From Candidatus Babeliales bacterium (GTDB lineage Bacteria > Babelota > Babeliae > Babelales > JANWKD01): DNA of 64,000 bases. How positions within the stretch are numbered: the stretch's first letter is position 1; every line of letters begins with the position of its first letter. Where the stretch lies: the NCBI GenBank assembly GCA_963701665.1, contig OY969622.1:1120001-1184000 (forward strand). The letters are read 5' to 3'. Under the pieces are notes generated by a model, which was not told the origin of the DNA, searched no databases, and was given only the letters and a program-made list of their open reading frames with translations. The position numbers and the translations under genes are program-made. This document shows, piece after piece, positions 1,776 through 29,447 of the stretch.

Positions 1776-2597
1776 TCACCACGTATAGCCTAAAGTCTTA
1801 AGAAGCGGGAGTGCTATCTTCCTAAATACAAGTTTGTGACGTTCGAGAAAATGGTTTTTCCATGAACCAATTTTTCCCTCTCGAAATGTTTCTGTGCCAC
1901 CAAATAATCTTTTAGTAAATCTTTCCGCCTCTTTCCTAGATATTTCAATACCAAGATGATGCGCGATTGCTTGAATTTCATACAGCTGTTCTTCCTTGGT
2001 TCCGCCGCCTTTTGGTCCGACTAACTTTTCAAAGGTGGTTGTATAGACGTTTGGATGAAATCTCCACGGTAAGAATAAATCATAAAAAGATTGTATGCCA
2101 TGCAAACTATTCCATGGCTCTTGCTCATGAAATACTGATTGCCAAATTGGGCCTCCTCCAACAATAAGTTCATCAATAATTTCTTCTAAAGGACGCCTAC
2201 CGTATAGAGGCCACGAAAGAGCGTTCTTTTGCAACCAAAAAGCTGTAGAAACTATTTGATCTCTTGGATCTCGATACATAAAAATTATTTTTATATTCTT
2301 ATCTAATAAAAATGATATATTATGCGGACAATATAATACATGAGAGACGATCAATACATCGCTTGTCATAAAAGTATGCATAATGTCGTCATCAAGAAGG
2401 TACACCGTTTTCGGTTCAATATATTTTTTATCTTTACGCAACATCAAGATAAGTTTTTTTACAAGATTTGTACCACATTTTGGTACGGAAATCAGCATGG
2501 GTAAAAAATTATGTTCAGTTTCATGTGCTTCATTATAAGTAATTGAGATTATAAAGACATACATAAGAAATAGGGAGTATTTATTAAAAAGACTCAT
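1776..2597 (-). CDS. Sulfotransferase-domain protein with N-terminal hydrophobic leader
   Basis: 5'-PSB loop SVPKCGTN, 3'-PB motif YRDPRDQIVS, C-terminal FREGKIGSWK; ATG at 2597 directly after the gmd stop. Confidence 0.85.
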   Translation of the reverse strand: MSLFNKYSLFLMYVFIISITYNEAHETEHNFLPMLISVPKCGTNLVKKLILMLRKDKKYIEPKTVYLLDDDIMHTFMTSDVLIVSHVLYCPHNISFLLDKNIKIIFMYRDPRDQIVSTAFWLQKNALSWPLYGRRPLEEIIDELIVGGGPIWQSVFHEQEPWNSLHGIQSFYDLFLPWRFHPNVYTTTFEKLVGPKGGGTKEEQLYEIQAIAHHLGIEISRKEAERFTKRLFGGTETFREGKIGSWKNHFLERHKLVFRKIALPLLKTLGYTW

Positions 2598-2599
2598 AA

Positions 2600-3730
2600 T
2601 TATCTGGCTTTTAGAAGAGCACAATCATCATCAACCATTAGTTTTACTAATTTTTCAAACGTAACTTTTGGTTGCCATCCCAGTTTTGAAAAAGCTTTGC
2701 CAGCATCACCTAATAAATGATCCACTTCTGCCGGCCTAAAATAGCGAGGATCAATACGTACTAATACTTGATTCGTTACCGCATCAATACCTTGCTCATT
2801 AAGCCCACTACCTTGCCATTTTAAATCAATATCTACATGCGCAAATGCATGCTCGAGAAATTCTCTCACTGAATGAGACTCTCCTGTTGCAATAACATAA
2901 TCATCTGGTTGATCTTGTTGTAACATCAGCCACATTGCCTCTACATATTCTTTTGCATAGCCCCAATCACGTTTTGCATCTAAATTGCCTACATAAAGCG
3001 TATCTTGTAACCCACTCTTTATTCGTGCAACTGCGCGAGTTATTTTTCTAGTTATAAAAGTTTCACCACGTAAAGGAGACTCATGATTAAATAAAATCCC
3101 ATTGCAGGCAAAAATCCCATACGCTTCACGATAATTTACCGTAATCCAATACGCATAGAGTTTCGCTACTCCGTAGGGTGAACATGGATAAAAGGGCGTT
3201 AATTCGGTTTGCGGACAAGGTGCGTTACCAAAAAGCTCACTCGTTGATGCTTGATAAAACCGCGTTTTATCGGTTAAATTTAGAATTCTAATTGCTTCTA
3301 AGATTCGTAGTGTGCCTAAAGCATCAGCATTGGCCGTATATTCTGGTGTTTCAAATGAAACTTGCACATGACTTTGTGCAGCTAAGTTATAAATTTCGTC
3401 TGGTTGTACCTGTTGAATGATGCGAATAAGGTTCGTACTATCAGTAAGATCGCCATAATGCAAAATAAATTGAGGATATCCTTGATGTAAATCTTTATAC
3501 AAATGATCGATACGGGTAGTATTAATCGATGAAGATCGACGTTTTATACCGTGCACTTCGTAATCTTTTGATAGCAAAAATTCAGCTAAATAAGCGCCAT
3601 CTTGGCCCGTAATGCCGGTAATTAATGCTTTTTTTTGTTTATGTTTAGAGAATTCCTCACTTGACTCATACGCAGCTCCATACAACGAATAGATGCTGAG
3701 AAATGAGAGTGTTAATAACCTGAAATACAT
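2600..3730 (-). CDS. gmd: GDP-mannose 4,6-dehydratase with ~30-aa N-terminal extension
   Basis: [68 protein letters not shown]. Confidence 0.97.
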
Positions 3731-3734
3731 ACCC

Positions 3735-4823
3735 TTACCCCTTAATCATTGGCATTTTATACCCCAACATTTTTAAATCTTCAAGCCACGCTTTAAGAAG
3801 ATTCAATTCAGAAGGCTTAAAAAAATCTTGTTTAATCAATGTTGTCATGAAATCAAGTATACGAATCCCAAGATCAACTTCTGCGCAATCCCATCCGATT
3901 GCTGCTGTTATAAATTCTCCAGCTTTTAAATATAAATCAATTTCATCAGCAAAATCTTTAAGCAAATCATGTTCATTACGAAATTGAATGGCGGTTGCCG
4001 GTAAAAAACATAAGGAAGCATTAATATCCCATAATATTCTTTGCACCCAATAACTACGCCAAATATCACAAACCCTAAATTTCGGCGTAATAGGTAATAC
4101 TAAACCCCAAAAGGCATCGTAATGAAAAATGGTATTTTGAGAATTAAAAGGACACATTGTTTTTACAGGTAAACTGACCGGTTTTTGGGTTGATTCAAAC
4201 TCAATCTCTTGGCTATGCGTTAAACGAAAAATTGCATCAACATCAGGATCGCTATTAACAAGGCCTTGTTGAATTGGAATAAAAGATCGTTCTAACAAAA
4301 ATTGATGTGACCCGGCTTGATTAATTTCTTTTAACGGAAATCCACGTGGCCATACTCGTGGTTGACCAAAATCAGCATATACATTAACTGCACTCGCATC
4401 TGTTTGATACTGTAGCATTAAACTTTTTTCTGAAAAATACGTGATTGTATCTTCAATTGGAGTATTATCATCATCGGTGTCGTAAATTATTGAAGCACCA
4501 TGCTCTAATGCATATAAATACCCAATATTTTTTCTACTGTAATGATTCCAAGGTAATAATGGACAAATGTTATAGGGTAATTTTTGCTGATCAGCAACAC
4601 TCAAAAAATCACAATTATCCAAATGCCAATCGAGAGGTGTTTTCTTATCTGCAACCACAACCAAATGCCAACCATCAATATTGGCAAGTTTTTCTAATGC
4701 TGGAGTCGGATATTGAATGGTGGTTACTACAATCCATTTATCATGCTGCTGATTAAATAAGAACAAAGGACACAATAAAAGTACAACCGCAATGAAGCTT
4801 TTTATGAATCTGAAAACAAACAT
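3735..4823 (-). CDS. STELLO/DUF288-like glycosyltransferase, N-terminal (GT-A, GT75-like) domain
   Basis: [43 protein letters not shown]...[28 protein letters not shown]. Confidence 0.88.
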
Positions 4824-4845
4824 CCTCTCCCCCCAATTAAATATT

Positions 4846-5679: not shown

Positions 5680-5884
5680 TCTGCATTCCCCCCTACAATG
5701 AAAGTTATGGATAAAATCTTATGCTTCTCACAATATTTATCCAAAATAGTAGCAAGTTCTACAAAACCTTATCAAGGGTTAGATATAAAAAAGCAAAAAA
5801 GAGATGCCTACTTTGATATTACAACTTCCAACTTTGGATCAATTGTTTTTTAATTTTTTCTAAGATTTCTTGTTTGTAATCAAC

Positions 5885-6888: not shown

Positions 6889-8850
6889 ATGTGTGGACTT
6901 GGTGGATATATAAATCTTTCAGAACGCTCGTTAACGCCCGATCACTCGCTTCTTGAACAGATGCAACAGCAACTTGCCCACCGTGGACCCAATGGCTATA
7001 GAATTTGGGTTGATGAACAACGAGCCGCAGGTTTTTTCCATCGTCGTTTGAGCATCATGGATCTTTCTGATGCCGGATTCCAACCCATGATGGATAAGGA
7101 AGAATCTGTCGTTGTTATGTGTAATGGTGAAATTTACAACCATCCTGAACTGCGCAAAGAACTTGAAGCGCTCGACTATCATTATGTTTCAAACTCAGAT
7201 ACTGAAACAATAATCCATGCCTATAAAGAATGGGGCATTAACGCGCTCAAAAAATTAAATGGCATGTTTTCTATTGTTATTCTTGATAAACGTAGCAATG
7301 AATTTTTTTTGGTACGCGATCGCCTCGGCATAAAACCGCTCTATTTTTCATTACAAGGAAATATTCTTAGTTTTGCTTCGGAAATAAAAGCTCTGTGGCC
7401 GTTGCCTTGGATTGAAAAAGAGCTCAATACACAAGCAATGTATCATTATCTGACCTATTTGATCACGCCCGCACCAATGACCCTTTATAAGGGAATTTAT
7501 AAATTGCCAGCCTCGTATTATCTTAAAATCGACGCTCAGAAAAATTACTCATTTCATGAATGGTATTCACCCCTAGAGCCTGAGATAACATACGACTCGA
7601 AATCATTACAAAGCGAGCAATTTTGTAGCACTACCTTGCAAAAGATGCTGCGTGAATCGGTCAAGCAACAAATGATGTCTGATGTACCCTATGGTGTTTT
7701 TCTTTCAGGCGGTATTGATTCAAGTTTGAATGTTGCGTTAATGTCTGAATTTACGCCACAGGTAAAAACATTTAATGTTTCGTTTGATGATGGGCCTGAA
7801 TATAGTGAAATTAATTGGGCTCGCAAAATTGCACGCAGATTCAACACCGATCATCACGAAATCATCATTTCTGAAAAAGAAGCGTTTGAATTTTATGAAA
7901 AGATGGTATTTCACCAGGACGAGCCGCTTGCTGATTGCGTATGCATTCCTTTGTATTATGTTTCAAAATTACTCAGCGATGCTGGCGTTGTTGTGGTACA
8001 AGTGGGCGAAGGTTCTGATGAATTATTTTGCGGTTATTCGATCTACGCCACTTATCTTGATTATTACAACCGCTATTGGAAACCATCACAAAAATTCATC
8101 CCGGCATTCGCAAAACAAACTGCCTATCAAATTCTTTCTACCTTATTTCCCCACAAGCAAAACCGCCTTGATATGATCAAAAATTGGGCAGATGGAAAAA
8201 GTTTCTTTTGGAGTGGAGCAACAGCATTCTCTGAAACATGGAAAAAGGAGATGGTACATCTTGCTTCAACATTGCCAGAACATGATGCTATCATTGAAAA
8301 AATCTATCCAGGATTTCAACAACTCTATAATAGCTATGTTGTTGTTGATTATCATTTAAAGCAATTAAAATTACATAAAAAAGATGCTGATTTTTTAACC
8401 TCGATGATCTATCTTGAACTCAAGCATCGATTACCAGAATTATTACTCATGCGCGTGGATAAAATGACCATGGCAACCTCCGTTGAAGCGCGCGTACCAT
8501 TCCTTGATCATCGCATCGTGGAATTTGCACTACAAATTCCTGCCTCGCTTAAATATAAAAATGGTATTACCAAATATATTCTCAAAAAAGCATGCGAGGG
8601 CATTTTACCGCACGATACTATTTACCGCAAAAAAATGGGCTTTGCTGCCCCAACAAGCCGCTGGTTTAAGCAAGGCAACTATTTCAAACCTTATTTCTTG
8701 GATTTGCTTCACAGCAAAAATAGCCCTTGGAACAATTATTTAGATATGAAAGCGGTAACGCACTTATTTGAACGCAATCAGCAACCAGAACATGAATATT
8801 CCGTGCAATTGTGGGCATTGCAAAATCTTATAGCTACCCAAGTCATATGA
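6889..8850 (+). CDS. asnB: Asparagine synthase (glutamine-hydrolysing) family amidotransferase, probably polysaccharide-amidating
   Basis: N-terminal MCG, HRGP, HRRLSI.D, NGEIYN, SDTE, RDRLGIKPLY, LSGGIDSS, GEGSDE, RVPFLD. Confidence 0.93.
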   Translation: MCGLGGYINLSERSLTPDHSLLEQMQQQLAHRGPNGYRIWVDEQRAAGFFHRRLSIMDLSDAGFQPMMDKEESVVVMCNGEIYNHPELRKELEALDYHYVSNSDTETIIHAYKEWGINALKKLNGMFSIVILDKRSNEFFLVRDRLGIKPLYFSLQGNILSFASEIKALWPLPWIEKELNTQAMYHYLTYLITPAPMTLYKGIYKLPASYYLKIDAQKNYSFHEWYSPLEPEITYDSKSLQSEQFCSTTLQKMLRESVKQQMMSDVPYGVFLSGGIDSSLNVALMSEFTPQVKTFNVSFDDGPEYSEINWARKIARRFNTDHHEIIISEKEAFEFYEKMVFHQDEPLADCVCIPLYYVSKLLSDAGVVVVQVGEGSDELFCGYSIYATYLDYYNRYWKPSQKFIPAFAKQTAYQILSTLFPHKQNRLDMIKNWADGKSFFWSGATAFSETWKKEMVHLASTLPEHDAIIEKIYPGFQQLYNSYVVVDYHLKQLKLHKKDADFLTSMIYLELKHRLPELLLMRVDKMTMATSVEARVPFLDHRIVEFALQIPASLKYKNGITKYILKKACEGILPHDTIYRKKMGFAAPTSRWFKQGNYFKPYFLDLLHSKNSPWNNYLDMKAVTHLFERNQQPEHEYSVQLWALQNLIATQVI

Positions 8851-10100
8851 AGCACAAAAAAATATTGTATCTGCGCACGGATATTTGTGATACGCCACTC
8901 ATTGCTGGCGGTTCAGTTGCTCATACGCTCGGCGTCATTGAAGGCTTTTTATCGCTCGATTATTCCGTTATGTGCGCATCTTCACTTATGCATGAAACAT
9001 TACGAGCGTTACACGTATCATCTTTGTGTACCCTTTCAAACCCTCGTTTTTTACGATTTTTGCGTTGGAAGCTCAATTGTCTTCTTTCATCATTTTTTTT
9101 TACGCTACAAACATTCCGCTTTATTAGAAATGAAAACATCGATTTCATCTATCAACGTTATTCGCTGTTAAATTGTACCGGCATTTTGTTGGGCAAACTA
9201 AAAAAAATTCCTTTAATACTGGAATATAATGGTTCAGAAGTGTGGGTCGATACGTTTTGGACAAAACAGCATTGGCTCTCTTTACGATTTCTCATAGCAT
9301 TCTTTGAAAAACTCAATTTAAAATATGCTCATCTTATTGTTGTTGTTTCACAGCCATTGTGCGATGAACTTGTTGCACGCGGATTTTCACAAGAAAAAAT
9401 TTTGGTAAATCCCAATGGCGTTAACACCGAATTTTTCAATCCCGCGCGTTTGGATGATGAACGCTCGACCTTAAGAAAAACATTACATATCGAACATCAA
9501 TTTGTTTTTGGGTTTATCGGCACTTTTTCAGCATGGCATGGCATCGAAATGCTTGAGGAAATGATTCCAGAAATTCTCGCTCAAAAAAACGATGTTCATT
9601 TTTTGTTAATCGGTAACGGTCCCTTATTTGAAAGTTTTTACAAGAAAATAGAACCTTATACTATTTCCGGTAATGTTACGTGTACAGGATTAATTCCACA
9701 ACATCAAGCGCGTGCCTATTTGGCCGCGTGCGATGCATTTTTATGTCCCACGCAACCAAACCCAGACGGCACGCCATTCTTTGGATCACCGACCAAAATT
9801 TTTGAATATTTGAGCATGGCAAAACCTATTATTGCGTCGGATCTTGAACAAGTAGGCGATTTAATTTCCCCAGCATTTAAAATACATTCACTGCAAGAAG
9901 AAAAACTCTCCGTCACTAATCAAGTTGGCTTTGCGCTTCCCGCGCAAAATAAGCGAGCGTTTATCCACGCAGCATATCGATTAATTGATATGCAAGAAGA
10001 CGAGCGTTTAAAAATGGGGACTTGCGCTCGTCAAAAAGCTCTTGAAAAATATGATTGGCAACATCATGTTAACGAAATTATTTCAGCAATACAAAAATAA
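8847..10100 (+). CDS. Glycosyltransferase family 4
   Basis: GT-B motifs PNGVN, FIGTF..WHG, GSPTKIFEY.SMAKPII.SD; ATGA overlap with the asnB stop. Confidence 0.9.
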   Translation: MKHKKILYLRTDICDTPLIAGGSVAHTLGVIEGFLSLDYSVMCASSLMHETLRALHVSSLCTLSNPRFLRFLRWKLNCLLSSFFFTLQTFRFIRNENIDFIYQRYSLLNCTGILLGKLKKIPLILEYNGSEVWVDTFWTKQHWLSLRFLIAFFEKLNLKYAHLIVVVSQPLCDELVARGFSQEKILVNPNGVNTEFFNPARLDDERSTLRKTLHIEHQFVFGFIGTFSAWHGIEMLEEMIPEILAQKNDVHFLLIGNGPLFESFYKKIEPYTISGNVTCTGLIPQHQARAYLAACDAFLCPTQPNPDGTPFFGSPTKIFEYLSMAKPIIASDLEQVGDLISPAFKIHSLQEEKLSVTNQVGFALPAQNKRAFIHAAYRLIDMQEDERLKMGTCARQKALEKYDWQHHVNEIISAIQK

Positions 10101-10108
10101 AGGACACC

Positions 10109-12628
10109 ATGCTCTTAAATTATGTGAAACGAGGGGCTTACAATAGTTTTATTTATGGATTAAGTTCAGCAATCATTAAAATTACTAATTTTATTTTTTT
10201 CCCCTATTTTCTTTCCGTTCTCACATTAGAAGATTTTGGTATTTGGGACTTCTATCAAATGTTTTTTTCATTAGGCATAACCTGTATAACTTCTTGCACT
10301 GCTACTTCTTTAATACGATTTTATTTCTTACACAGAGATAATATCTTAAAGCAAAAGCAAGTTATAGGGAATGCTTGTTTAATATGCCTAATTAGCATGG
10401 CAGTTTTTTTAATTACAATCCTAGGATTATATTATTATAATATTGTTCCAATTATGAGTAATTATTTAACTATAACAATAACTAATGTCTGTCTTTTCGG
10501 GTTATTTACCATTGTTATTTCATATTTACGAATTAACGAAAAATTGTTTTTATATTTGTTTTTTTTTACTGGACAAAGTACGTTAACTCTTGCATTAACA
10601 TTATTAGGCATACATTATCACTATGGCATCGATGCTTTTTTTTTGGCAAATATGATATCACTTTTATTGTTTGTTCCTTTTTTTTTATACCTTCTTTCCC
10701 GAAACTTTTATTTCTCTCTTAGCCTTCTCAAAGAGCAATTTATATTTGGCCTACCTTTACTCTCATATGCTATCATCTATATGGGATTTTTTTATGTTGA
10801 CCGTTTATTTATCACAAATATTCTTGGTTTAGAATCTCTTGGTATTTATGCTTTATTATGGCGATTCGGTATTCTATTTCAATTCTTCTCAATCGCTCTA
10901 ATAGATGCATGGCCAATCGTAGTATTTAATGCTGATAAAGAAAAAAACAGACAAATGCTTCTTACCAAGCTAAATACGTATTATATAGCAACTTTAATTA
11001 CATTAGGATTATCTACAACTATCGCTTCACAGTGCTTAATAAAAATAATGATTCCTATTAAATATCTCTTTTTAACAGAATATTTGCCTCTGTTTTTTCT
11101 ATCTTTGGTATTATTAGATATTGCCAGATTATTACAAACCAGCTTTAACTTAACAAACAAAACATTTTATATACCAATTTTAGCCATCGTTACTTTATGC
11201 ATTCAATATTGTACCTTTTTTATCTGCCAATTTTTTACAACTCTTAATCTTTCAATAGTGTTACTTATTAATATATTTACCTTTTCTTCTTACATAGTTT
11301 TAAGTTATATGCTGACAAAAAAATTATCCAATAAAACAATTGATGATAAACGTACCATAACCATGGCGTGCTTTCTCTTTGTGTATATAATCCTCTTTCA
11401 TATACTTTTTAAGTATCATGCATCTTTATCCTATTCTTTCCTCATGCTTTTTTCTTGGCCACTGCTATTGTGGTTTTCAAATATAATTTCAAGCGATGAA
11501 AAAACCTGGCTTTTAAAAATCATTTCAACAAAATTTCAATATTTATTTGTCGCCTACAATCAAAAAGAAAATCCTGTAACTGAGTATGAATTACATACTT
11601 ATTCTAATAATCTAATAAATAAAAAAATCGCTATATTTGGACCATATCCCCCACCATTTGGTGGCATTAGTGTTCACATCAAAAGAGTCACTCATAAATT
11701 ACTAAATCAGGGTAATGAGGTAAAAAATTTTGACACAACTATTAGACCACGATTTCGAGTTAGCTATATATTTCAGATTATTAGATTTTTAATCACATTT
11801 AAGCCGTCAATAATCTTTTACCACACACCCTATACAAAAAACGGGTTAGAAGAATTTGCAACTATAGTCTTTATAAAATTATTATTTGGCTCAAAATTAA
11901 TACTTATAGAACACGATTCCCGATATTTAGATAAACAATCTTTTTTATTTAAAATAATTTTCAACAAACTTATAAAAATGATTAACCAACAAATTTTCAT
12001 TGGGAAATCCCCCTTAGAAAGTTATTTTAATAACAAAATTTTTATACATTCACAATCTGTTATAGAACCAGCGTTCTTGCCGCCTGACTTATCTCAAGAA
12101 CAGAACATTTTAAAAAGCTATCCAAAAGAGTTATTTCATTTTTTAGAACACCGTAGTCCTATTCTAACAGCGAATGCATTTCAACTAATTTTCCTTGATG
12201 ATAAGGATCTTTATGGATTTGATTGGTGTATTGAACTTGTAAGTCAATTGAAACCAAAATTTCCAGACATCGGCTTTGTTTTTGCACTCGCTCAAATAGG
12301 CAACAAAACATACTATGATCAACTTGTAAAAAAGATAGAAAATTTAAATATAAAAAATAATTTTTATATCTTAACCAATCAAAAAGAATATTGGCCTTTA
12401 TTAAAAAAAGTTGACATATTTGTCAGGCCAACGCTTGCCGATAATTTTGGCATTAGTGTTGCAGAAGCTCTATATTTTGGAAAAATTTCTATCGCAAGTA
12501 ATGTTTGTACAAGACCAAAAAATACAGTTTTATTTAAATGGGGCAATAAAGAAGATTTTTTTGAAAAAGTGAATGCTTGTTTAAATAATCACATACATAC
12601 AAATATATCAGAGCAAATGCATTTATAA
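10109..12628 (+). CDS. Wzx-like polysaccharide flippase fused to a C-terminal GT4 domain
   Basis: ~470 aa multi-TM region (LTLEDFG, FYVDR, LGIY) followed by GPYPPPFGGISVH and DIFVRPT..DNFGISVAEAL..G. Confidence 0.8.
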   Translation: MLLNYVKRGAYNSFIYGLSSAIIKITNFIFFPYFLSVLTLEDFGIWDFYQMFFSLGITCITSCTATSLIRFYFLHRDNILKQKQVIGNACLICLISMAVFLITILGLYYYNIVPIMSNYLTITITNVCLFGLFTIVISYLRINEKLFLYLFFFTGQSTLTLALTLLGIHYHYGIDAFFLANMISLLLFVPFFLYLLSRNFYFSLSLLKEQFIFGLPLLSYAIIYMGFFYVDRLFITNILGLESLGIYALLWRFGILFQFFSIALIDAWPIVVFNADKEKNRQMLLTKLNTYYIATLITLGLSTTIASQCLIKIMIPIKYLFLTEYLPLFFLSLVLLDIARLLQTSFNLTNKTFYIPILAIVTLCIQYCTFFICQFFTTLNLSIVLLINIFTFSSYIVLSYMLTKKLSNKTIDDKRTITMACFLFVYIILFHILFKYHASLSYSFLMLFSWPLLLWFSNIISSDEKTWLLKIISTKFQYLFVAYNQKENPVTEYELHTYSNNLINKKIAIFGPYPPPFGGISVHIKRVTHKLLNQGNEVKNFDTTIRPRFRVSYIFQIIRFLITFKPSIIFYHTPYTKNGLEEFATIVFIKLLFGSKLILIEHDSRYLDKQSFLFKIIFNKLIKMINQQIFIGKSPLESYFNNKIFIHSQSVIEPAFLPPDLSQEQNILKSYPKELFHFLEHRSPILTANAFQLIFLDDKDLYGFDWCIELVSQLKPKFPDIGFVFALAQIGNKTYYDQLVKKIENLNIKNNFYILTNQKEYWPLLKKVDIFVRPTLADNFGISVAEALYFGKISIASNVCTRPKNTVLFKWGNKEDFFEKVNACLNNHIHTNISEQMHL

Positions 12629-12666
12629 AAAACATAGAGGATTGTGTATTAAAAAAGGAACCTATT

Positions 12667-13344: not shown

Positions 13345-13417
13345 GAAACTTTAAAAGCGTTTTAACAAAACCCATAACTAAATACGGTACTTTTAATTAT
13401 TGATAAAGAAAGGCCAT

Positions 13418-17374: not shown

Positions 17375-17399
17375 AATTTTCATCAATCTTTAAAAAAAG

Positions 17400-20693: not shown

Positions 20694-20726
20694 AATGCCC
20701 AACTACTCTTATATCTCGTACATTTA

Positions 20727-21932
20727 TTATTTGTTAAAAATGTATCGTACTCGAATAAAATAATGCATATAATAATTCATTTTAAATATCTTATTCAGAT
20801 ACATCCCTTCTAAAAATTGCAGAGTATAAAAAAGACCAAAGACAAAAGCACAACAAATGAAACTAAGCGCATATTGTGGTGTTGGTAAGGTTAAAATAGG
20901 TGTAATGCTACTTAAGCCAAAGGTGCACAAAAATGCAATAATAAGATCATAGCGGCGCACTGAATAATAAAATGCAAACAATCCAAAATTTGCAAAAAAC
21001 AGAAGATAAAAAAGTAAAATCCCTAATTTTGAAAAAATAGTCCAAATTACGAAATACAATTGGGTTTTAATGAGCTTGATTACTTCATTTTTTAAGATTC
21101 TTTCATAATCGCTCGTTTGCGAAATCGACACGTCTGGATTAATTTGACGTACTTTATAATCCCCAAATGCGTCGTCCCATCTAATATCGTCTTTATTATT
21201 AAATTTTAAAAAACCGAATCCAATATATACTTGGTGCCAAAAAACATGTTTCGTTTGTAAAGAATCGAACTCTTTGAAATGAGTCTGAGCAAAGTTTCTA
21301 TATAATTTAATTGCATGTTCAAAGTAACAACTTGAAATGAAGATCCCTAAAAAAAGGCATGCTAACAATATGATTTTTTTTATAAATTCCAAATTTGCAT
21401 GCAACACTACCATGCACATAATAAACCCTAGTACGGGCAATGAAGAATATGTTCTCACATAATGAGAAAAGCCAATGATAATTCCTGCGAAAACCAAAAA
21501 ATAATTGAAAAATTTGGAATCGTTATTTCTTAAGGCAAAGTATAAAAATAAAGGGATAATTGATAAAAATGATACCAAGTATTCGTTATACACGTCATAT
21601 AATTGATAAAAAATAAGCCTTAAAAACAAACAAAATGATAGACACGAGACAATTTGTGTTGAGATTTTTGCTTTAAATAGCAATAAAAAACCGATTAAAC
21701 CAAGCACAAAAGCAACACCAATTTGGGAATAAAAAAATATATCGATTGCTTGCTGCAAAGAAACATTAAAAAATTGTACAATTTTAGGCACAAATAAATA
21801 TAAGCCAACATCATCAAACGTTAAAAAAGGTACAAATTTTGACCCATCAAATCCTACAAATGGGATTTGAATTTTTTCCATCGCTGCTACTATCTTTTGT
21901 AAGGTAACAAATCTGCATTCCATTATTAACAT
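20727..21932 (-). CDS. Multi-pass membrane protein, putative GT-C-fold glycosyltransferase
   Basis: ~10 hydrophobic segments; DDVG near N-terminus, HYVR.YS, H.FW...Y.GFGF shared with two paralogs; next to GtrB-like GT2s. Confidence 0.55.
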   Translation of the reverse strand: MLIMECRFVTLQKIVAAMEKIQIPFVGFDGSKFVPFLTFDDVGLYLFVPKIVQFFNVSLQQAIDIFFYSQIGVAFVLGLIGFLLLFKAKISTQIVSCLSFCLFLRLIFYQLYDVYNEYLVSFLSIIPLFLYFALRNNDSKFFNYFLVFAGIIIGFSHYVRTYSSLPVLGFIMCMVVLHANLEFIKKIILLACLFLGIFISSCYFEHAIKLYRNFAQTHFKEFDSLQTKHVFWHQVYIGFGFLKFNNKDDIRWDDAFGDYKVRQINPDVSISQTSDYERILKNEVIKLIKTQLYFVIWTIFSKLGILLFYLLFFANFGLFAFYYSVRRYDLIIAFLCTFGLSSITPILTLPTPQYALSFICCAFVFGLFYTLQFLEGMYLNKIFKMNYYMHYFIRVRYIFNK

Positions 21933-21969
21933 ACTGCTTCCCAAAATTCTTAAAAAATCTTAAATAATA

Positions 21970-23181
21970 TTATTTGAGAGTAATACCACATCTATATCTA
22001 TACGCCAATTTTTTTAACATAGCGCTTATTGGATATAACTCAATTAGCTTTGCTATGTTAATTATGCCAAAAAGAGTACTTGTCACAATAAATGATAAAG
22101 AATAATTGCCTTGAGGTAATGCCATGATAGGAAAAAGAGCGCTAATGGCAAAACAGAATAGCCAAGCTAACTGTTGCCTCCAATATGTTCGGGTAAAAAT
22201 TAAAGCCAAGAATCCTATATTCGCGTATTTGAGAAAATAAAAAAATAAAACGCCTAGTTTAGCAAAAATAGTTGCTATCACAAAAAAACGTTGCGTTTGC
22301 CACATATCAATCACTTCTTGTCTTACTGCTTTTTCAAATTCGGTCATAGTTAGAAATGAAAGTTGTGAATCACGCTTATTCACTTTTTTTTCAACACAAC
22401 TATCTTCAAACGATATATTATCAACGTTAAGATATTTCAAAAAACCAAACCCAGCATATACCGTCGTCCAAAAAGCATGCTTACTCGTAACATCACAATC
22501 CTTAAAATGTTCAGCTGCATATGTTTTGTACCGATAAACCTGATACGAAAAATAGCCGTAAGGCATACTTAAACCCAAGCATAACAAAAGAGCCAATGCA
22601 ACTTTTTGCTTAACAGTACTATGTACGCTAGTCAAAAAGGCAATAAGCATAAAAATTATAACTGATAGTCCTGAATAAGAACGTATATAATGTAAGGAAC
22701 CAAGCACTATACCACTTAGAACCACAAAGTATGGAAAAAGCCGATGAGATTTTTCCTGTAAAAAATAAAGATACAATGGCATGATACTTAATGGCGCTGC
22801 ACTATACGCTAAATAAACGTCTGTTATTGGAATATTGGTTATCGAATATAATAAAAATGCAAGTGATCCAAAACTGATAATACGTATTTTCCAAGAATTA
22901 TAGAGCAAAAAAAAGGCATATGAGGCAATTAAAAAAGGAATATACAATAACCCATAAAAAAATATATCGATTCCTTGTTGCAACGAAATGTTCAGCAATT
23001 TTACAATTTTTGGAATAAAAATATAAATTCCTATATCGTCAAAACAGCCTGTCCATGATCCTGCTGTTCCGGACATGGGTAAAAATGAGGCACCATCAAA
23101 ACCGATGAATGGTACATTAATTTTGTCACATGCGTTAAGTAAATATTCAAGAACCAAATAACGAGAATCTAATATCTTCAT
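21970..23181 (-). CDS. Multi-pass membrane protein, putative GT-C-fold glycosyltransferase (paralog 2)
   Basis: FDDIG, HYIRSYS, HAFWTTVYAGFGF, FAKLGVL. Confidence 0.55.
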   Translation of the reverse strand: MKILDSRYLVLEYLLNACDKINVPFIGFDGASFLPMSGTAGSWTGCFDDIGIYIFIPKIVKLLNISLQQGIDIFFYGLLYIPFLIASYAFFLLYNSWKIRIISFGSLAFLLYSITNIPITDVYLAYSAAPLSIMPLYLYFLQEKSHRLFPYFVVLSGIVLGSLHYIRSYSGLSVIIFMLIAFLTSVHSTVKQKVALALLLCLGLSMPYGYFSYQVYRYKTYAAEHFKDCDVTSKHAFWTTVYAGFGFLKYLNVDNISFEDSCVEKKVNKRDSQLSFLTMTEFEKAVRQEVIDMWQTQRFFVIATIFAKLGVLFFYFLKYANIGFLALIFTRTYWRQQLAWLFCFAISALFPIMALPQGNYSLSFIVTSTLFGIINIAKLIELYPISAMLKKLAYRYRCGITLK

Positions 23182-23334
23182 ATCAATCTTTATTAACCAA
23201 TTTTAATTTTGCGATTACTCTAACATAATTAGCTTTCATGTCTAGGTTAAGATCTTTCAAAATTTTGCTATCATAGATCCTACGAACCGTATTTTGTAGT
23301 AAAGAGGGTTGATAGTTTTCTTAAAAAAGAAAAC

Positions 23335-24294
23335 TTGAAGAAGCAGATGCAAAAAAAATTAGCCATCCAAAAAAAGATTTCAGTTATTTTGCCGGTATAC
23401 AACGAGAGTAAAAACCTGCCAACGGTTTACCACGCGTTAGAGGAATCTATGCACTCGTTGCTCGGTGCCTATGATTATGAAATTATATTTGTTAATGATG
23501 GCAGCCTTGATGAATCATGGTCGATCATCACATTGTTATCAGCGCAAAACTCAAAAATTAAAGGTATCAATTTCAGTCGCAATTTTGGCTATCAAAGGGC
23601 ATTAACAGCAGGCTATGATGCAGCAGTTGGCGATGCAATTATCACCATGGATTCTGATATGCAGCATCCGCCGCATTTATTACCGATGTTAATAGCAAAA
23701 TGGGAATCGGGTGCTAATATTGTATATGCAAAAAGAACCAATCGAGAAGATACCTTCTTAAAGAAAATGACTGCTCATTTTTACTACCAAATATTAGAAG
23801 CAATCTCTGATATTCATATTCCTCAAAATGTTAATGATTTTCGGCTCATAGATCGACGCGTATTAGTTTATATTAAATCAATGACAGAACACTCGCGTTA
23901 TTTACGTGGCATGATAGCATGGGCAGGCTTTGATTATGCGATAGTCGATTTTAATCAGCCCACTCGATTATCAGGAACAACAAAATATACCTGGAAAAAA
24001 TTATTTAAAATTGCTTTTGATGGTATTGCTAATTTTTCACTTTTCCCTTTAAAGCTTGCATGCTTCTTTTTCATACTTGTAGTCATATCAGGATTTAGTA
24101 TAGCAATGGGTATCGCTGTTCACTATGTATCGCATACTCATCGGTTTCAAATCATTGATTTGATGTATTTTTTGCTATATCTCACCTTCGGTTTACAATT
24201 TTTACTGTTATGGCTTTTGGGAAGAAATATTGGCATAATTTACGATCAACTCAAAGAGCGTCCCTTGTACATCATTAGAAAAAAAATCAACTGA
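23335..24294 (+). CDS. GtrB/ArnC-like polyprenol-phosphate glycosyltransferase (GT2)
   Basis: VILPVYNE, FVNDGS.D, FSRNFG, MDSDMQHPP, DFRLIDR, two C-terminal TMs, RPLY. Confidence 0.9.
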   Translation: MKKQMQKKLAIQKKISVILPVYNESKNLPTVYHALEESMHSLLGAYDYEIIFVNDGSLDESWSIITLLSAQNSKIKGINFSRNFGYQRALTAGYDAAVGDAIITMDSDMQHPPHLLPMLIAKWESGANIVYAKRTNREDTFLKKMTAHFYYQILEAISDIHIPQNVNDFRLIDRRVLVYIKSMTEHSRYLRGMIAWAGFDYAIVDFNQPTRLSGTTKYTWKKLFKIAFDGIANFSLFPLKLACFFFILVVISGFSIAMGIAVHYVSHTHRFQIIDLMYFLLYLTFGLQFLLLWLLGRNIGIIYDQLKERPLYIIRKKIN

Positions 24295-24316
24295 TTCCTT
24301 CTATTCAAACAATTGT

Positions 24317-25543
24317 TCAAATTCTTAATAATTTAAAATTAGCGATAGTATTAATACAATTTCTCATGGTATAAGCTATATTTTTTTCATACCTAGATAA
24401 GAAATGATTAATACTTATAATACAATAAAGAGTACTAAAACTAATAAATGAAAATGAGAAAAGGCGAATAGGTAATGCAATCAATGGAAAAAGTGTACTT
24501 AATGCAAAACCTATGAAAAATGATAGTTCAACTCGCCAAGGCTTTGGGTAAAAAAACGCAATTAGTAAGCCAAAATTCGCCGTAATTAATAAATAAAACA
24601 ATAAAACACCTAATTTGGCAAATAACGTCATTAAAACAAACGTCTTTTGATGCCTGCACAAATCTATAACTTTCTTTTTGACGATTTTTTCATATTCATT
24701 TATTTGAAAATAAGGTATAGACGGAAAATCTTTGTTAACAGCCCTTTCAACACAGCCATCATCATATTCAATATTATCCTTATTTAACCACTTAATAAAA
24801 CCAAAACCTGCATATATAGTATGCCAAAATGGATGTTGGGTTGGTAAACCATTAGAAGTATCAAAATGAACTACTGCATAGCTTCTATATTCTTTGATTA
24901 CGGTATCAAAATACATCTTTGAAACCATAAGCCCACTGACGAGTAATACTATAAGATATAGTTTTCTTTTATAATCAAAATCAGCATGCACCAAAAGATA
25001 GCACATTATAAAACCAAGAACAGGCAAACTAGAATATGAGCGGACGTAATGTAACATTCCAAGAAATACCCCTGAAAGAAAAAGAAAAGACATTAAAATT
25101 CTAAGGTTTTTTTTCTCTTGGCTGAAATATAAAAAAAGAGGAATAACCGCAAGGATTGCTGCACAATACGCTATATAAACATCCGATGCATAAACACAAA
25201 TTTTTAAAAATAAAATTAATGCCAAAATTGTTACACATCTTTGAAGCATAGTTTTATAGAGTAAAAATAATCCCCCAGCACCTAATGCTAGTGAACCATA
25301 AAAAAGTCCGTTAAAAAAAATATTAATGCCAAGATCAACCGATATGCCAAAAAATTTAATCAATTTGGGTATCAATACAAATATGCCAATATCATCAAAG
25401 CTCCCTGTCCATGATGCTAGAGTTCCTGTAAAAGGGATAATGTTAGTGCCATCATAACAAACCAATGGAACATCTATCTTAAATGTATTATAGGCATTCA
25501 TTATATAGTTAAGGGCTAAATATCGAGAAGGAAGAATGTTCAT
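24317..25543 (-). CDS. Multi-pass membrane protein, putative GT-C-fold glycosyltransferase (paralog 3)
   Basis: FDDIG, HYVRSYS, HPFWHTIYAGFGF, FAKLGVL; ATG at 25543 aligns with paralog starts. Confidence 0.55.
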   Translation of the reverse strand: MNILPSRYLALNYIMNAYNTFKIDVPLVCYDGTNIIPFTGTLASWTGSFDDIGIFVLIPKLIKFFGISVDLGINIFFNGLFYGSLALGAGGLFLLYKTMLQRCVTILALILFLKICVYASDVYIAYCAAILAVIPLFLYFSQEKKNLRILMSFLFLSGVFLGMLHYVRSYSSLPVLGFIMCYLLVHADFDYKRKLYLIVLLVSGLMVSKMYFDTVIKEYRSYAVVHFDTSNGLPTQHPFWHTIYAGFGFIKWLNKDNIEYDDGCVERAVNKDFPSIPYFQINEYEKIVKKKVIDLCRHQKTFVLMTLFAKLGVLLFYLLITANFGLLIAFFYPKPWRVELSFFIGFALSTLFPLIALPIRLFSFSFISFSTLYCIISINHFLSRYEKNIAYTMRNCINTIANFKLLRI

Positions 25544-25574
25544 TAATCTAACCTTATTGTCAAAAAAGAGTGTC

Positions 25575-26282
25575 TTATTTGTTACCATTTAATTGTGCTA
25601 TGACAGCATACAGAGCTCCCACAGGAATTTTTGTCATGAAACGCTCAGTCCATCTTAGGTATTTGAATACGCGTGGATAAAAACAATAATATTTTGTAGT
25701 TAATGTCGCGTGCGGTAAAAACTCACCCATGATTGCGCGTGCATAGCTTGGATATAACATTGTTGCATGTTTATCAATTGGGTTATTTTTAAATGTTCGT
25801 ACCGTTAACGGATTAAAAGGATTCAATTCAAATAAAACGAAACACCCTTGAGGTTTTAAAACACGAAAAATTTCTTGCAGATATCCTTGATGACGATCGA
25901 AAGGAATATGATGAAAAGTTCCTGCTGAAAAAATAATATCAAAAGTATTATCTTCGAAGTCTAAATCAGACGTTTCATCGTAATTAACGGAAAATTTAAT
26001 CGAAGTAAAATGTTCTTGCGCAACCTTCACACTTTCGGCAGATGGATCGATACCATATAAAACCGATAATGGAAAATATTGTGAAACTAGATAGGTCATG
26101 AGACCATCGCCACAACCAAAATCTAAAATTTTTTGATTTTGTAGGCTTCTTGCCGGCATCCATTCTTTTAACTTTAATGCTTTATATTCTGCGAAGTATT
26201 CACTTGATTCCCCGGACAATGATAATGATTGATCAAGATTTTTACGATAATTTTTAATATAAGCATCGAATTCAGAATTCAT
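25575..26282 (-). CDS. Class I SAM-dependent methyltransferase
   Basis: EFDAY, ILDFGCGDG, FHHIP, FELNPFNP; ATG 26282 after AGGTG. Confidence 0.88.
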   Translation of the reverse strand: MNSEFDAYIKNYRKNLDQSLSLSGESSEYFAEYKALKLKEWMPARSLQNQKILDFGCGDGLMTYLVSQYFPLSVLYGIDPSAESVKVAQEHFTSIKFSVNYDETSDLDFEDNTFDIIFSAGTFHHIPFDRHQGYLQEIFRVLKPQGCFVLFELNPFNPLTVRTFKNNPIDKHATMLYPSYARAIMGEFLPHATLTTKYYCFYPRVFKYLRWTERFMTKIPVGALYAVIAQLNGNK

Positions 26283-26380
26283 AGGCACCTTTTTCAATTT
26301 CTTATAAGTCACTTAAAGTCTTTGTAATTTTTGCTATCATTAATGTCATTAACCCTACATTTTGTAAAGGTGCCAGAGTA

Positions 26381-27418
26381 ATGAAAAAGAAATTATCGAT
26401 CATCGTACCCATTTACAATGAAGAAGAAAACATAGCAGTACTTTATAAAACGGTGACCAATATTCTTCAACAGCTTTCTTCTTCCTATGAATATGAACTT
26501 ATCCTGGTTAATGACGGTAGCAAGGATACCTCTTGGTCAATCATCGCAGACTTAGCACAAACAGATACCCATGTTAGAGCCTTAGATTTTAGCAGAAATT
26601 TTGGCCATCAAATGGCACTCACTGCAGGGTATGATTATGCTTCAGGTGATGCAATAATAACTATGGATGCCGATTTACAAGATCCACCACACCTTCTTTT
26701 TGATATGATTAACGCGTGGGAAAAAGGTTTTTCTATCGTATACGCGCGTAGAGCGAATCGCATAGATAGTTTTCTTAAAAAAATAACTGCTCTGCTTTAT
26801 TATAAATTCTTAGATTCTATATCAGATGTTAAAATCCCTCGCAACGTAGGAGATTTTAGATTAATAGATAGAAAAGTCTTAGTAACATTAAAAGAATGTC
26901 GTGAAAAAGCGCGTTATTTGCGCGGCATGGTTGCATGGACCGGATTCAAGCACACGTTCATTGATTTCGATCGCCCTAATCGCCTCGCGGGCCAGACTGG
27001 CTACACATGGAAAAAAATGTTCAAACTTGCATTCGATGGTTTAACGGGTTTCTCGCTGTTTCCTTTAAAACTCGCTGCCTATGCAGGATTATTTGTCATA
27101 ACAACAGGTAGCATGATGTTCACCTACATTAGTATTGATGCTTTACTATTCAATACCTACTATCCTCTTTTTAAATGGCTAACGACCATTATTTACATTT
27201 TCATGGGCATACAATTTTTACTGCTATGGCTCCTTGGTGAATATATTGGTCGCATCCATGAACAACAAAAAAATCGGCCTCTTTATATCGTTGATGAAAC
27301 AGTAAATGTAACTATGTACGTACCAGCACGGAATACAACGATCCAAGATGAAGAAATTCCATATACTGCCGTATCAATGAAAAATACGGAGAAAGATAAT
27401 AATACTTCACCTTCGTAG
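26381..27418 (+). CDS. GtrB/ArnC-like polyprenol-phosphate glycosyltransferase (GT2)
   Basis: IIVPIYNEE, VNDGSKD, FSRNFGHQ, MDADLQDPP, GDFRLIDR, LGEYIGRI, RPLYIV. Confidence 0.92.
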   Translation: MKKKLSIIVPIYNEEENIAVLYKTVTNILQQLSSSYEYELILVNDGSKDTSWSIIADLAQTDTHVRALDFSRNFGHQMALTAGYDYASGDAIITMDADLQDPPHLLFDMINAWEKGFSIVYARRANRIDSFLKKITALLYYKFLDSISDVKIPRNVGDFRLIDRKVLVTLKECREKARYLRGMVAWTGFKHTFIDFDRPNRLAGQTGYTWKKMFKLAFDGLTGFSLFPLKLAAYAGLFVITTGSMMFTYISIDALLFNTYYPLFKWLTTIIYIFMGIQFLLLWLLGEYIGRIHEQQKNRPLYIVDETVNVTMYVPARNTTIQDEEIPYTAVSMKNTEKDNNTSPS

Positions 27419-27935
27419 AACGTGCAGCATTATCAAATAATGCAATAATCTCTTTTGGTGACACCATGCGACTATTTTGTTCGGCATGATCTTTTTTAAA
27501 TTGACAGCGAGTGCCTCTATTATAGGGATTAAATTCAACAATAATTATTCTTCCATGAGTATTCAGAACCCGTAAAATTTCTTTACTATACAAAGAATAT
27601 TCTGTCGTTGGTATATGATGAAAAACATTCACGGCATATACAACGTCAAATGTATTATTTTCAAAAGGTAACGTGTAGGCATCTAACACTGAGAAATGTA
27701 TAGTTTTATAATCTTGAGAAGCTTGATCAATACTATTTTTATCTTTATCAACACCATAAAGTAACGCCTTGAAAAACGCATTTTGAACAAAGTTAGTCAA
27801 TTGACCATCACCACATCCGAAATCCAAAATAGTAGATTTTTTATTAATTAAATCTGGAATCAATTTTGTGATCTCTTCACAAACAAAGGCATCAAATTCT
27901 ATCTTCGATGCCTTATCAAGATCAAATAATTTCAT
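27312..27935 (-). CDS. Class I SAM-dependent methyltransferase (paralog of 25575 and 28011)
   Basis: EFDAF, ILDFGCGDG, LPFENNTFD, FHHIP, EFNPYN; ATG 27935 after AAGGTGAG. Confidence 0.82.
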   Translation of the reverse strand: MKLFDLDKASKIEFDAFVCEEITKLIPDLINKKSTILDFGCGDGQLTNFVQNAFFKALLYGVDKDKNSIDQASQDYKTIHFSVLDAYTLPFENNTFDVVYAVNVFHHIPTTEYSLYSKEILRVLNTHGRIIIVEFNPYNRGTRCQFKKDHAEQNSRMVSPKEIIALFDNAARSTKVKYYYLSPYFSLIRQYMEFLHLGSLYSVLVRT

Positions 27936-28010
27936 AAAGCTCACCTTGAAAAAAAATAAAAGAAAACTACCTTTAAGTGTATGGTGAAAAAGTAAAAAAG
28001 AGGAAAAATC

Positions 28011-28712
28011 ATGAAAGCAGAATTTGATCGCTATATTAAAGATTTTCGCAAAAATCACGATAGAGAGATGAGCCTCGTCGGCGAATCAAGTGCTTTGATG
28101 GCTGAATTCAAAGTCATCAAACTCAAAGAATGGATCCCTCATCACATGCATAATGCAAAAAAAGTGTTTGATTTCGGCTGTGGTGATGGGCTCATGACAG
28201 CATTTATGAAGCAGTATTTTCCTAAAGCTGAAATGCTTGGCGTAGATCCTTCGAGCGCAAGCATAAAAATCGCACAAGAAACATATCCTGAGATTCATTT
28301 TTCTGTTAATTACGTTGAAAAATGTGATTTGGAATTTGAAAATAGTAGTTTCGATGTCAGCATCGCGGCGGGAGCTTTTCACCATATACCTTTTAAGAAC
28401 CATGACGGCTATATGAAAGAGATTTTTCGCACCTTGAAACCAAATGGCACCTTTGTACTCTTTGAATTGAATCCTTATAATCCTGGCACACAATTTATTT
28501 TTCGCCGAAGTCCCGTTGAAGTAAACGCCAAAATGTTAACACCTCGTTATGCAACAAATTTATTAAAGAAATATTGTAATGCTAACGATAAAATTACCCG
28601 CAAATATTATTTCTTTTTTCCTCATTTCTTGCGATTTCTAAGACCTCTGGAAAAATACCTTGCTTCATGTTTTCTTGGCGGTCTTTATGCCATCATTGTT
28701 GAAAGAAAATAA
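28011..28712 (+). CDS. Class I SAM-dependent methyltransferase
   Basis: EFDRY, FDFGCGDG, FHHIP, FELNPYNP; RBS GAGGA. Confidence 0.88.
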   Translation: MKAEFDRYIKDFRKNHDREMSLVGESSALMAEFKVIKLKEWIPHHMHNAKKVFDFGCGDGLMTAFMKQYFPKAEMLGVDPSSASIKIAQETYPEIHFSVNYVEKCDLEFENSSFDVSIAAGAFHHIPFKNHDGYMKEIFRTLKPNGTFVLFELNPYNPGTQFIFRRSPVEVNAKMLTPRYATNLLKKYCNANDKITRKYYFFFPHFLRFLRPLEKYLASCFLGGLYAIIVERK

Positions 28713-28724
28713 TTCGTACGTGAG

Positions 28725-29447
28725 TTAGTTATTCGATGCGCCAAATACCTTTTGAGCCAATTCTTTTCTAACAAAAAGAACATCACCAAAAGTAATGTGA
28801 TGCGTTACTTGATAGAGAGCTACAAATCCTTGATCTTCCATCCATTTTCTGAATTCATCACAATGAAGCGCATCTTTATAGAGATAGGTATAACTAACTT
28901 CAGCATAAACCGCTTTTACGGTACTCAACATTTTGGGTGAACTTTTCAGAACTTTTGCTTCCATACCCTGCAAATCAAACCAGAGTAAATCGATATGATC
29001 TATATTCATTTCTTCTGCCCAAGCATCAAGCGTGGTTGTTTCAACAATGATCTTGTTCTCAAAAGTGATATGAGGAAAATAATAACCCAAAAACTCATGG
29101 GGTTCTAACAATGAACTTGATTGATCTCCACCGCCACCACTAACATACATTAATGCGTGGCCAACTTTATCACTGAGCGCTTTTTGAAAGCAATGTATAT
29201 TTTTTTTAGTACACGTATTTACATTCAGTTGTTTAAAAATGTCGGGGACTGGTTCAAAAGCAAAAATAGTCGCTTCTGGCCATACATTAATCATCTCACA
29301 TGAATCTAGACCATTATATGCGCCAGCATCGACGATTATTGGGTTTTGCGGCAAAAAAGGGATAATTAAATCTTTAGGTAAATTTTCCGCATGTATACCT
29401 GCTGCATGAAACATTATTACAGAAAAAATAAACAATAGCTTTTTCAC
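28725..29447 (-). CDS. FkbM-family methyltransferase with signal peptide
   Basis: IVDAGAYNG, AFEPVP, TTLD, IDLLWFDLQG.E, EVS, GDVLFVR; leader ending IHA. Confidence 0.88.
   Translation of the reverse strand: MKKLLFIFSVIMFHAAGIHAENLPKDLIIPFLPQNPIIVDAGAYNGLDSCEMINVWPEATIFAFEPVPDIFKQLNVNTCTKKNIHCFQKALSDKVGHALMYVSGGGGDQSSSLLEPHEFLGYYFPHITFENKIIVETTTLDAWAEEMNIDHIDLLWFDLQGMEAKVLKSSPKMLSTVKAVYAEVSYTYLYKDALHCDEFRKWMEDQGFVALYQVTHHITFGDVLFVRKELAQKVFGASNN

Follow-up and report, generated by a model that had tools for sequence, protein, structure and literature searches.

The window analysed here is the whole 64,000-nucleotide stretch at contig positions C1:1120001-1184000 of the genome labelled G000, which belongs to Candidatus Babeliales, a lineage whose cultured members are parasites of protists. 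The genome is a single contig of 1.34 Mb with 37% GC and is rated 93.6% complete. Between window positions 1776 and 29447 lie 24 genes, ten of which encode a hydrophobic N-terminal leader followed by a complete domain. These ten genes, all on the minus strand, encode a sulfotransferase, a GDP-mannose 4,6-dehydratase (Gmd), three parts of STELLO, a stand-alone methyltransferase, three proteins in which a glycosyltransferase (GT) is fused to a methyltransferase, and an FkbM-family methyltransferase. The original prediction, made from the DNA letters alone, had listed the same ten as a candidate exported glycan-tailoring toolkit with Sec-type leaders, and our analysis finds them at the places it gave, each with its leader ahead of a complete catalytic domain.

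The leadered sulfotransferase (1776..2597; PF00685, E 8.6e-13) contains both of the motifs that we take to be those binding 3'-phosphoadenosine 5'-phosphosulfate (PAPS). Gmd (2600..3730) scores 598 bits against TIGR01472, for a cut-off of 415; its catalytic and NADP-binding motifs are the same as in a leaderless paralog of this genome, and the stretch joining its leader to its domain is without any start codon. The STELLO family PF03385 is spread over separate genes, and not encoded as the full-length, two-domain, membrane-anchored protein: profile positions 1-112 match the N-terminal half (STELLO-N, 3735..4823; E 3.7e-22), which has a DTDDDN motif, and positions 199-303 and 265-309 match two paralogs of the C-terminal half, STELLO-C1 (4846..5679) and STELLO-C2 (5885..6739), respectively. 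The stand-alone methyltransferase (15054..15758) is of the Methyltransf_24 type (PF13578, E 4.5e-7) and has motifs that agree with those of the second fusion; a sequence search of the PDB gave no match for it. Fusion 1 (15818..17383, starting at 17383 or 17374) matches PF24785 and retains its GT residues, and its methyltransferase domain, with degenerate motifs and no PF13578 match at E 0.01, looks degenerate. Both domains are intact by motif in fusion 2 (17400..19034); fusion 3 (19116..20693) has one acidic methyltransferase motif residue altered and a GT domain 81% identical to that of fusion 2. The tenth protein, FkbM (28725..29447), matches PF05050 at E 2.8e-21. For the sulfotransferase, STELLO-C2 and fusion 3, the internal ATGs at 2597, 6739 (with a Shine-Dalgarno (SD) sequence) and 20693 are likelier starts than those first proposed.

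The three fusions had been described as exostosin-like proteins of family GT47, a label that we replace. The predicted structure of the GT domain of fusion 2 (pLDDT 89.6) was matched by Foldseek to A075L of the chlorovirus PBCV-1 at E 4e-16 with a TM of 0.69, the next family following at E 6e-5, and A075L was also matched by profile (E 5e-55) and by single sequence (E 2e-17). A075L is a UDP-xylose:fucose xylosyltransferase, the founder of GT114, and was itself once labelled an exostosin (PMC11571054). Equivalents of its Asp73, Asn148, Arg158, Gly203, Arg208 and Glu211 are retained in all three fusions; across the 46 rows of alignment A1, the Asn is conserved in 45 and both Arg and the Glu in 46, and the Asp column is D in only 24. 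None of the three fusions matches PF03016 at E 0.01, and EXT1/2 and EXTL3 reach only about 2e-3 by Foldseek; many homologs of the fusions do carry a PF03016 match. From the structure match, the profile match and the conserved residues, the GT domain of the fusions is a member of GT114, the family of the chlorovirus xylosyltransferase. By analogy with A075L, the donor may be xylose and the acceptor fucose; the position of Asn202, which contacts the acceptor in A075L, is G, Y or K in the fusions, so that the acceptor likely differs from that of the viral enzyme. All three named homologs of fusion 2 come from Dependentiae or Babeliales, and the best locus among named genomes is in a metagenome-assembled genome (MAG) of Babeliales.

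Genes and leaders were called with purpose-written scripts, the leader test being a heuristic with a loose and a strict version. The loose test passes all ten genes and the strict one eight; by chance, the loose version passes 643 of 5582 off-frame open reading frames (ORFs; 11.5%) and 40 of 3687 internal Met positions (1.1%), and the strict version 238 of the 5582. The uncharged run of the ten leaders has a median of 10.5 residues (range 9-17), the insertion free energy (dG) of the best 19-mer is positive in 10/10 (+1.9 to +12.6), and the median net charge is +2 before the hydrophobic run and -1 after it. Of the basic n-region and hydrophobic segment that had been claimed for every leader, the hydrophobic run is present in all ten and the basic n-region in nine (net charge +1 to +3), that of STELLO-C1 being neutral. 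Small residues at -3/-1, judged by eye only, are plausible in most leaders and unclear in STELLO-N. The 29 leadered ankyrin proteins of this genome have a median run of 11 residues, charges of +2 before and 0 after, and a 19-mer dG of +3.6, and five of six anchor-like proteins picked by eye have runs of 19-20 residues. Since run length and dG match those of the ankyrin leaders and not those of the anchors, the ten leaders are shaped like cleavable Sec signals, and judging from these features they are likely to be such signals, with the enzymes exported from the bacterial cytoplasm.

The starts of the genes support the leaders as part of the proteins, as originally supposed: an SD-supported start past the hydrophobic segment occurs in 0/10 genes, the downstream ATGs of the sulfotransferase and of the stand-alone methyltransferase having no SD. 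We rejected export by the Tat pathway, given that no leader has a twin-arginine motif and that TatC was not found in this 93.6%-complete genome. Strand was likewise rejected as the cause of the leaders. The ten do share the minus strand, as had been pointed out, but so do five leaderless genes of the span (three membrane proteins and two methyltransferases), and genome-wide the leaders fall on 311 of 575 plus-strand and 290 of 516 minus-strand ORFs.

The remaining genes of the span include, as an internal control, a conventional plus-strand block (6889..15050) of an AsnB-type amidotransferase, a GT4, a Wzx-GT4 fusion and three class I methyltransferases, all of them leaderless, as the original prediction had said. 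One of these methyltransferases (window 12667-13344) is of a family whose members have leaders in 7/9 relatives, and its N-terminus may be a decayed leader. Leaderless genes are also interspersed at 20727..28712: three multi-pass membrane proteins, two GT2 with C-terminal helices and three class I methyltransferases. The membrane proteins are paralogs (window 20727-21944, 21970-23181 and 24317-25588), each near a GT2 or a class I methyltransferase, an arrangement also present in locus L031 of a relative; they have no Pfam family at E 0.1 and are possibly lipid-linked sugar transferases. In a genome of the same genus, G001, the sulfotransferase directly adjoins AsnB, which indicates that the Gmd-STELLO cassette was either gained in G000 or lost in G001. 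Elsewhere in the window, window positions 33947-41313 hold large leadered proteins (947, 425, 448 and 441 aa), none with a Pfam family, and an AAA_14/DUF4143 ATPase is present in two copies, one at each end (477-1637 and 60427-61599).

Leaders are common in the genome as a whole: of its 1091 ORFs of at least 120 aa, the stricter call marks 523 as leadered and the looser one 601. The 10/24 of the span compare with about half genome-wide, and we therefore rejected an enrichment of leaders in the span. The original prediction missed how frequent leaders are in this lineage: in Chromulinavorax, signal peptides are reported on 44% of the coding sequences and on 78% of the ankyrin proteins (PMC6561590), and 29 of the 33 ankyrin proteins of G000 are leadered. 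The number of leaders is thus ordinary; which enzymes carry them is not. Among 110 leaderless soluble proteins sampled from 368, 59 were named by NCBIfam at E 1e-45, nearly all as core cytoplasmic enzymes. Of the 433 leader-called soluble proteins outside the window, 277 family representatives were scanned over their first 330 residues; 66 had a Pfam match at E 1e-9, with no ribosomal protein, tRNA ligase, polymerase subunit or gyrase among these 66, and the seven housekeeping-type matches among the 277 are, by eye, likely false calls. The contrast between leaderless and leadered families is only a rough one, because the two scans used different libraries.

Convincing leaders were also seen on a glutamine synthetase (C1:43037-44431), a thioredoxin (C1:68026-68712), a superoxide dismutase (SOD; C1:76816-77610), a flavodoxin-fold reductase (C1:583274-583942), DnaJ and a GNAT acetyltransferase, and a thioredoxin reductase (C1:684526-685986) is anchored. 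Such ATP- and NADPH-dependent enzymes are, from their N-termini, apparently placed outside the cytoplasm, so that the export of cofactor-dependent enzymes would extend past this locus. Such leaders are found as well on a USP-type deubiquitinase (C1:1246720-1247928), whose Cys and His boxes are intact, and on DOT1-like (C1:722805-723494), MavL-like (C1:338752-340248) and Macro (C1:1074226-1074990) proteins, all of which are candidate effectors against a protist host.

Several of the leadered enzymes have paralogs in the same genome. A leaderless Gmd, 75% identical to that of the window, lies in a leaderless wecB-wecC-manC-gmd-fcl operon (C1:122358-131062), and a leaderless FkbM, 44% identical, at C1:926569-927195. 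A second leadered cluster (FkbM, two GT32, GT2 and GT10) is found at C1:377344-382693, and three further leadered sulfotransferase paralogs at C1:108096-115424; the leadered genes of 301-314 aa within the second sulfotransferase array were rejected as sulfotransferases by motif. The genome therefore has a leadered Gmd and a leadered GT10 fucosyltransferase, and Fcl only in leaderless form, a gap in the exported set that a host enzyme could fill. Neither MetK nor an APS kinase was found in G000 by family search and tblastn, nor were orthologs of Ugd and UXS: a Ugd query had its best match in WecC (26% identity) and a UXS-like query in an epimerase (29%). Three EamA-family transporters (C1:738349-739236, 755680-756534 and 1254743-1255597), judged by the role of this family in Rickettsia, are candidates for the import of S-adenosylmethionine (SAM) in this genome, where MetK was not found.

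As for the export machinery, SecA is present, and signal peptidase I (LepB) is encoded by two genes in tandem (C1:911619-913409), a duplication that fits a large leadered proteome. The type II secretion system (T2SS) genes that had been noted at 42.7-47.4 kb of the window are there on the plus strand (42725..47371): GspF and GspG, another three genes of pseudopilin type, and one that has no name. A GspC-like protein, two secretins and two GspE-type ATPases are encoded elsewhere; GspL/M and a prepilin peptidase were not identified among the T2SS genes of G000. In TM6, T2SS components are reported to belong to the core (PMC4776705).

Homologs of the fusions in other genomes are also leadered. 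Among the matches listed for fusion 2, 92/120 pass the leader test, most of them at 30-50% identity. We compared the best GT114 loci, 75 from genomes and 80 from viruses, found with a profile built from leadered proteins and grouped by the submitters' record titles; as only the best 80 of 341 candidate stretches were taken, free-living bacteria with leaderless GT114 may rank below them. Of the GT114-like proteins at these loci, 27/33 from records titled TM6, Dependentiae or Babeliales are leadered, as are 23/26 from those titled Chlamydiae, 48/52 from otherwise titled ones and 7/80 viral ones; for their soluble neighbours the counts are 98/142, 111/191, 120/211 and 44/486, respectively. A quick GT114 tree was built from 86 rows, which include 24 viral proteins out of the 80 and none of the otherwise-titled ones; the two bacterial groups intermix in it, with 11 changes, of which the starred branches force 2-3.

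Gmd is leadered in 13 of 35 full-length copies (two partial rows of 37 were dropped), which do not form a single clade, and a single origin of leadered Gmd is not supported (5 changes; AU test, p 0.023). In this tree 14/32 forks are open and the starred branches alone force one change; the states of four rows were corrected by hand, and one weakly leadered GT2-Gmd fusion was scored as leadered. Where Gmd is leaderless in the loci of relatives, the neighbouring Fcl and ManC are leaderless too. When Gmd carries a leader, so does ManC or Fcl in L035, L037 and L049; L050 is unclear, and in L036 they are leaderless. Fusions observed in relatives include a leadered Gmd-Fcl (L035:8369-10597) and a GT2-Gmd (L040:9074-11095). 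The gene sets of these loci differ between genomes.

Enzymes that make the donors are leadered in some relatives. MetK occurs in 12/121 genomes of the order, and nine of the eleven readable N-termini are leadered (L118-L123, L125, L163 and L164); the two leaderless copies nest within the leadered clade, with the hydrophobic part apparently deleted, and look like losses of the leader. In the chlamydial phylum, with matches in 41/151 genomes, 29 of the 30 MetK read are leaderless, so that an extension of leadered MetK to Chlamydiae was mostly negative; the single leadered one, in L347, branches within the Babeliales clade with a support of 100, which points to a transfer or to mis-binning. A full-length APS kinase is encoded by 7/121 genomes (matches in 60 were tallied, of which 53 are weak and P-loop-type only, and were not counted), six of them with an intact Sat-CysC fusion, leadered in all six, and the seventh with a split one. 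Bifunctional PAPS synthase loci are L156:8334-10007, L157:13266-14942, L158:8898-10598, L159:5321-7084, L160:8451-10154, L161:7127-8848 and L173:3797-5488; in most cases the leadered PAPS synthase sits within a sulfotransferase array, with up to eight sulfotransferases, the majority of them leadered. Six of the seven APS-kinase genomes are among the 15 with a homolog of the window sulfotransferase, the other nine, including G000, showing no full-length APS kinase; as these counts involve kin, they are not independent and carry no statistical weight. ManC, Fcl and UDP-glucose dehydrogenase are also leadered in relatives. Chlamydial loci have leadered GalE, RmlB-like, RmlD-like and Ugd-like enzymes and one that, going by a motif, is probably UXS-like; among the chlamydial nucleotide-sugar dehydratases and epimerases read, 4/20 are leadered and 16/20 leaderless. 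Leadered enzymes of L036:9488-10765, L049:9265-11377, L119 and L164 retain a Met at the ordinary start, which could allow exported and cytoplasmic forms.

The best explanation of these observations, to which we assign a probability of about 0.5, is that the enzymes are exported by Sec and that they build a glycan outside the bacterial cytoplasm from host metabolites. Export in some form, taken across the readings that involve it, appears highly probable. The product would likely be sulfated and methylated and contain fucose and xylose. After transport by Sec and cleavage of the leader, the enzymes would fold and take up their cofactors outside; as Sec moves unfolded chains and no Tat was found, NADP, SAM, PAPS and nucleotide sugars would be met only after export. 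The T2SS, through which the enzymes may pass, or vesicles would carry them on to the cell surface and the host cytosol or vacuole, where host GDP-mannose, UDP-xylose, SAM and PAPS would be used, some relatives topping up with exported SAM and PAPS synthases, and the product would be a surface coat. The leadered ATP-consuming synthases point to an ATP-containing space outside the inner membrane, and that this space is the host cytosol or vacuole would fit the deubiquitinase as well as the lack of an exported Fcl and of a source of UDP-xylose in our searches. We also count in favour of export that the same type of leader is found on proteins whose substrates are eukaryotic, namely the deubiquitinase and the DOT1-like, Macro and MavL-like proteins. 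Chromulinavorax is reported to enter the host cytoplasm and apparently sheds vesicles (PMC6561590). Export with the use of host cofactors, one of the two options of the original prediction, thus agrees with the leader shape, the two LepB, SecA, the T2SS set, the absence of TatC and of donor pathways from our searches, and the viral and chlamydial contrasts, and is a prediction.

Several points weigh against this explanation. Export is predicted from sequence, with a heuristic test whose chance rate is 11.5%, and as about half of the proteome is leadered, many of the leaders may reflect a general drift towards export. SAM, and as a rule PAPS and GDP-fucose as well, are made in the host cytosol anyway, so that exporting synthases looks redundant. 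In L036 the leadered Gmd is flanked by ManC and Fcl without leaders, a Met persists at the former start of several leadered enzymes, so that a cytoplasmic form could be made, and the methyltransferase of one fusion is degenerate. Few extracellular proteins are reported for Dependentiae MAGs, 15 on average over three pooled phyla (PMC11495043).

Other destinations for the exported enzymes have to be considered. They could remain in the periplasm, with host nucleotides having access to it, and make a glycan of the envelope in that space, which we regard as rather unlikely although it is the strongest competitor. It dispenses with the T2SS step, and the four ATP/ADP translocases of G000 imply that host ATP crosses the periplasm, where exported MetK and PAPS synthase would fit best, with ATP present and SAM and PAPS scarce. 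LpxC was not found in this 93.6%-complete genome, Babeliales mostly lack genes for lipopolysaccharide (LPS; PMC4776705), and dense periplasmic material is reported in Chromulinavorax, which its authors ascribe to peptidoglycan (PMC6561590). A periplasmic Gmd, however, would be without a leadered reductase partner in G000 and a source of UDP-xylose was not found there; no outer-membrane pore was identified, and some proteins with the same leaders need substrates found only in a eukaryotic cell. These last proteins, with the ankyrin proteins, share their export signature with the ten enzymes, and eukaryotes are known to have STELLO and RXYLT1-like domains, which would suit effectors that modify the glycans of the host or deplete its nucleotide sugars. 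We consider such a role improbable, since the neighbours of the genes (Wzx, GT2 and membrane proteins) are those usual in surface-glycan loci, their sets differ between genomes as those of coat loci do, and the closest characterised relative makes the virion's own glycan (PMC9614988, PMC11571054).

It is also conceivable that the leaders are a by-product, accessory genes being lengthened by signal-like stretches out of the AT-rich DNA upstream, and that the exported copies are idle or decaying. Half of the proteome is leadered, the loose test passes 11.5% of off-frame ORFs, leadered Gmd is not one clade, and split or degenerate copies exist; but the core enzymes are leaderless (59 of the 110 sampled leaderless proteins were named, nearly all as housekeeping, against 7/277 apparently false calls on the leadered side), leaders are kept in 92/120 of the listed, mostly 30-50% identical homologs and across the whole MetK clade, and the catalytic motifs are intact, so that we give this account a slightly smaller chance still. 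Least probable of all is the other option of the original prediction, in which uncleaved leaders would tether a cytoplasm-facing assembly line to the inner membrane. It would remove the cofactor problem, and the cleavage sites were judged by eye only. Runs of 9-17 residues, with a median of 10.5 against the 19-20 of five of the six anchor-like proteins, and a 19-mer dG that is positive in all ten speak against it, and by the positive-inside rule a net charge of +2 before and -1 after the run is the orientation that sends the domain out.

With the preferred reading of export and synthesis outside the cytoplasm, a broader and more tentative proposal, which we hold at somewhat less than even odds, is that glycosylation is outsourced: Babeliales and some environmental chlamydiae would export by Sec both transferases and the donor supply (SAM synthetase, PAPS synthase, ManC-Gmd-Fcl and Ugd-UXS), use host ATP outside the inner membrane, and make a chlorovirus-like coat with a gene pool shared with giant viruses. 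If this is true, the exported SAM synthetase and PAPS synthase would amount to ATP-driven biosynthesis outside the parasites' inner membrane, and one pool of glycosylation genes would tie bacterial endosymbionts to the giant viruses of protists. It would also suggest the surface material of the LPS-less Babeliales and a job for part of their large unexplained secretome. Our literature search, made largely without subscription journals, found no description of exported glycan or donor enzymes in Babeliales/Dependentiae or Chlamydiae. In textbook bacterial glycan synthesis, nucleotide sugars, SAM and PAPS are kept in the cytoplasm.

Compared with known systems, Wzx/Wzy loci, whose nucleotide-sugar enzymes are cytoplasmic and leaderless, resemble the leaderless block of the window and the operon at C1:122358-131062; in G000 this cytoplasmic type is seen in the paralogs of the leadered enzymes. 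The eukaryotic Golgi, to which the enzymes had originally been likened, also has STELLO and sulfotransferase domains that follow a hydrophobic segment at the N-terminus. Golgi enzymes, however, are type II anchored and most of their donors are made in the cytosol and imported, whereas the Babeliales segments are too short to anchor, the donor synthases are leadered and STELLO is split. A comparison with giant viruses fits better. The machinery for the capsid N-glycan of PBCV-1 (A075L/GT114, A064R, A061L and the Gmd A118R) shares with the locus the GT114 fold and catalytic residues, a GT-methyltransferase fusion, a stand-alone sugar methyltransferase and a Gmd of its own (PMC9614988). Its soluble enzymes are predicted to act in the host cytoplasm (PMC9614988, PMC11571054), and most of its GTs are without signal peptides (PMC9614988). 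The viral enzymes are thus made in place, mostly without signal peptides, whereas those of Babeliales are bacterial and leadered, and Asn202 is not retained in the fusions.

The secretome of Chromulinavorax destructans is alike in its share of leadered proteins, including the ankyrin ones, and the main text of its description has neither 'glycos' nor 'methyltransferase' (PMC6561590). The nearest precedent is the glycogen synthesis of Chlamydia trachomatis in the inclusion lumen, where a bacterial polysaccharide-building enzyme acts outside the cell on a host nucleotide sugar; an export route by Sec and T2SS is also known there, for CPAF (PMC6717882). It differs in that GlgA and GlgB use type III signals, that the donor-making GlgC has none, and that the product is a storage homopolymer (PMC6717882), whereas in G000 and its relatives Sec leaders are found on transferases, tailoring enzymes and donor synthases. 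The system described here would then be a variant of glycan synthesis in a host compartment, for which the export reading is well supported by the genes and leaders that we have compared.

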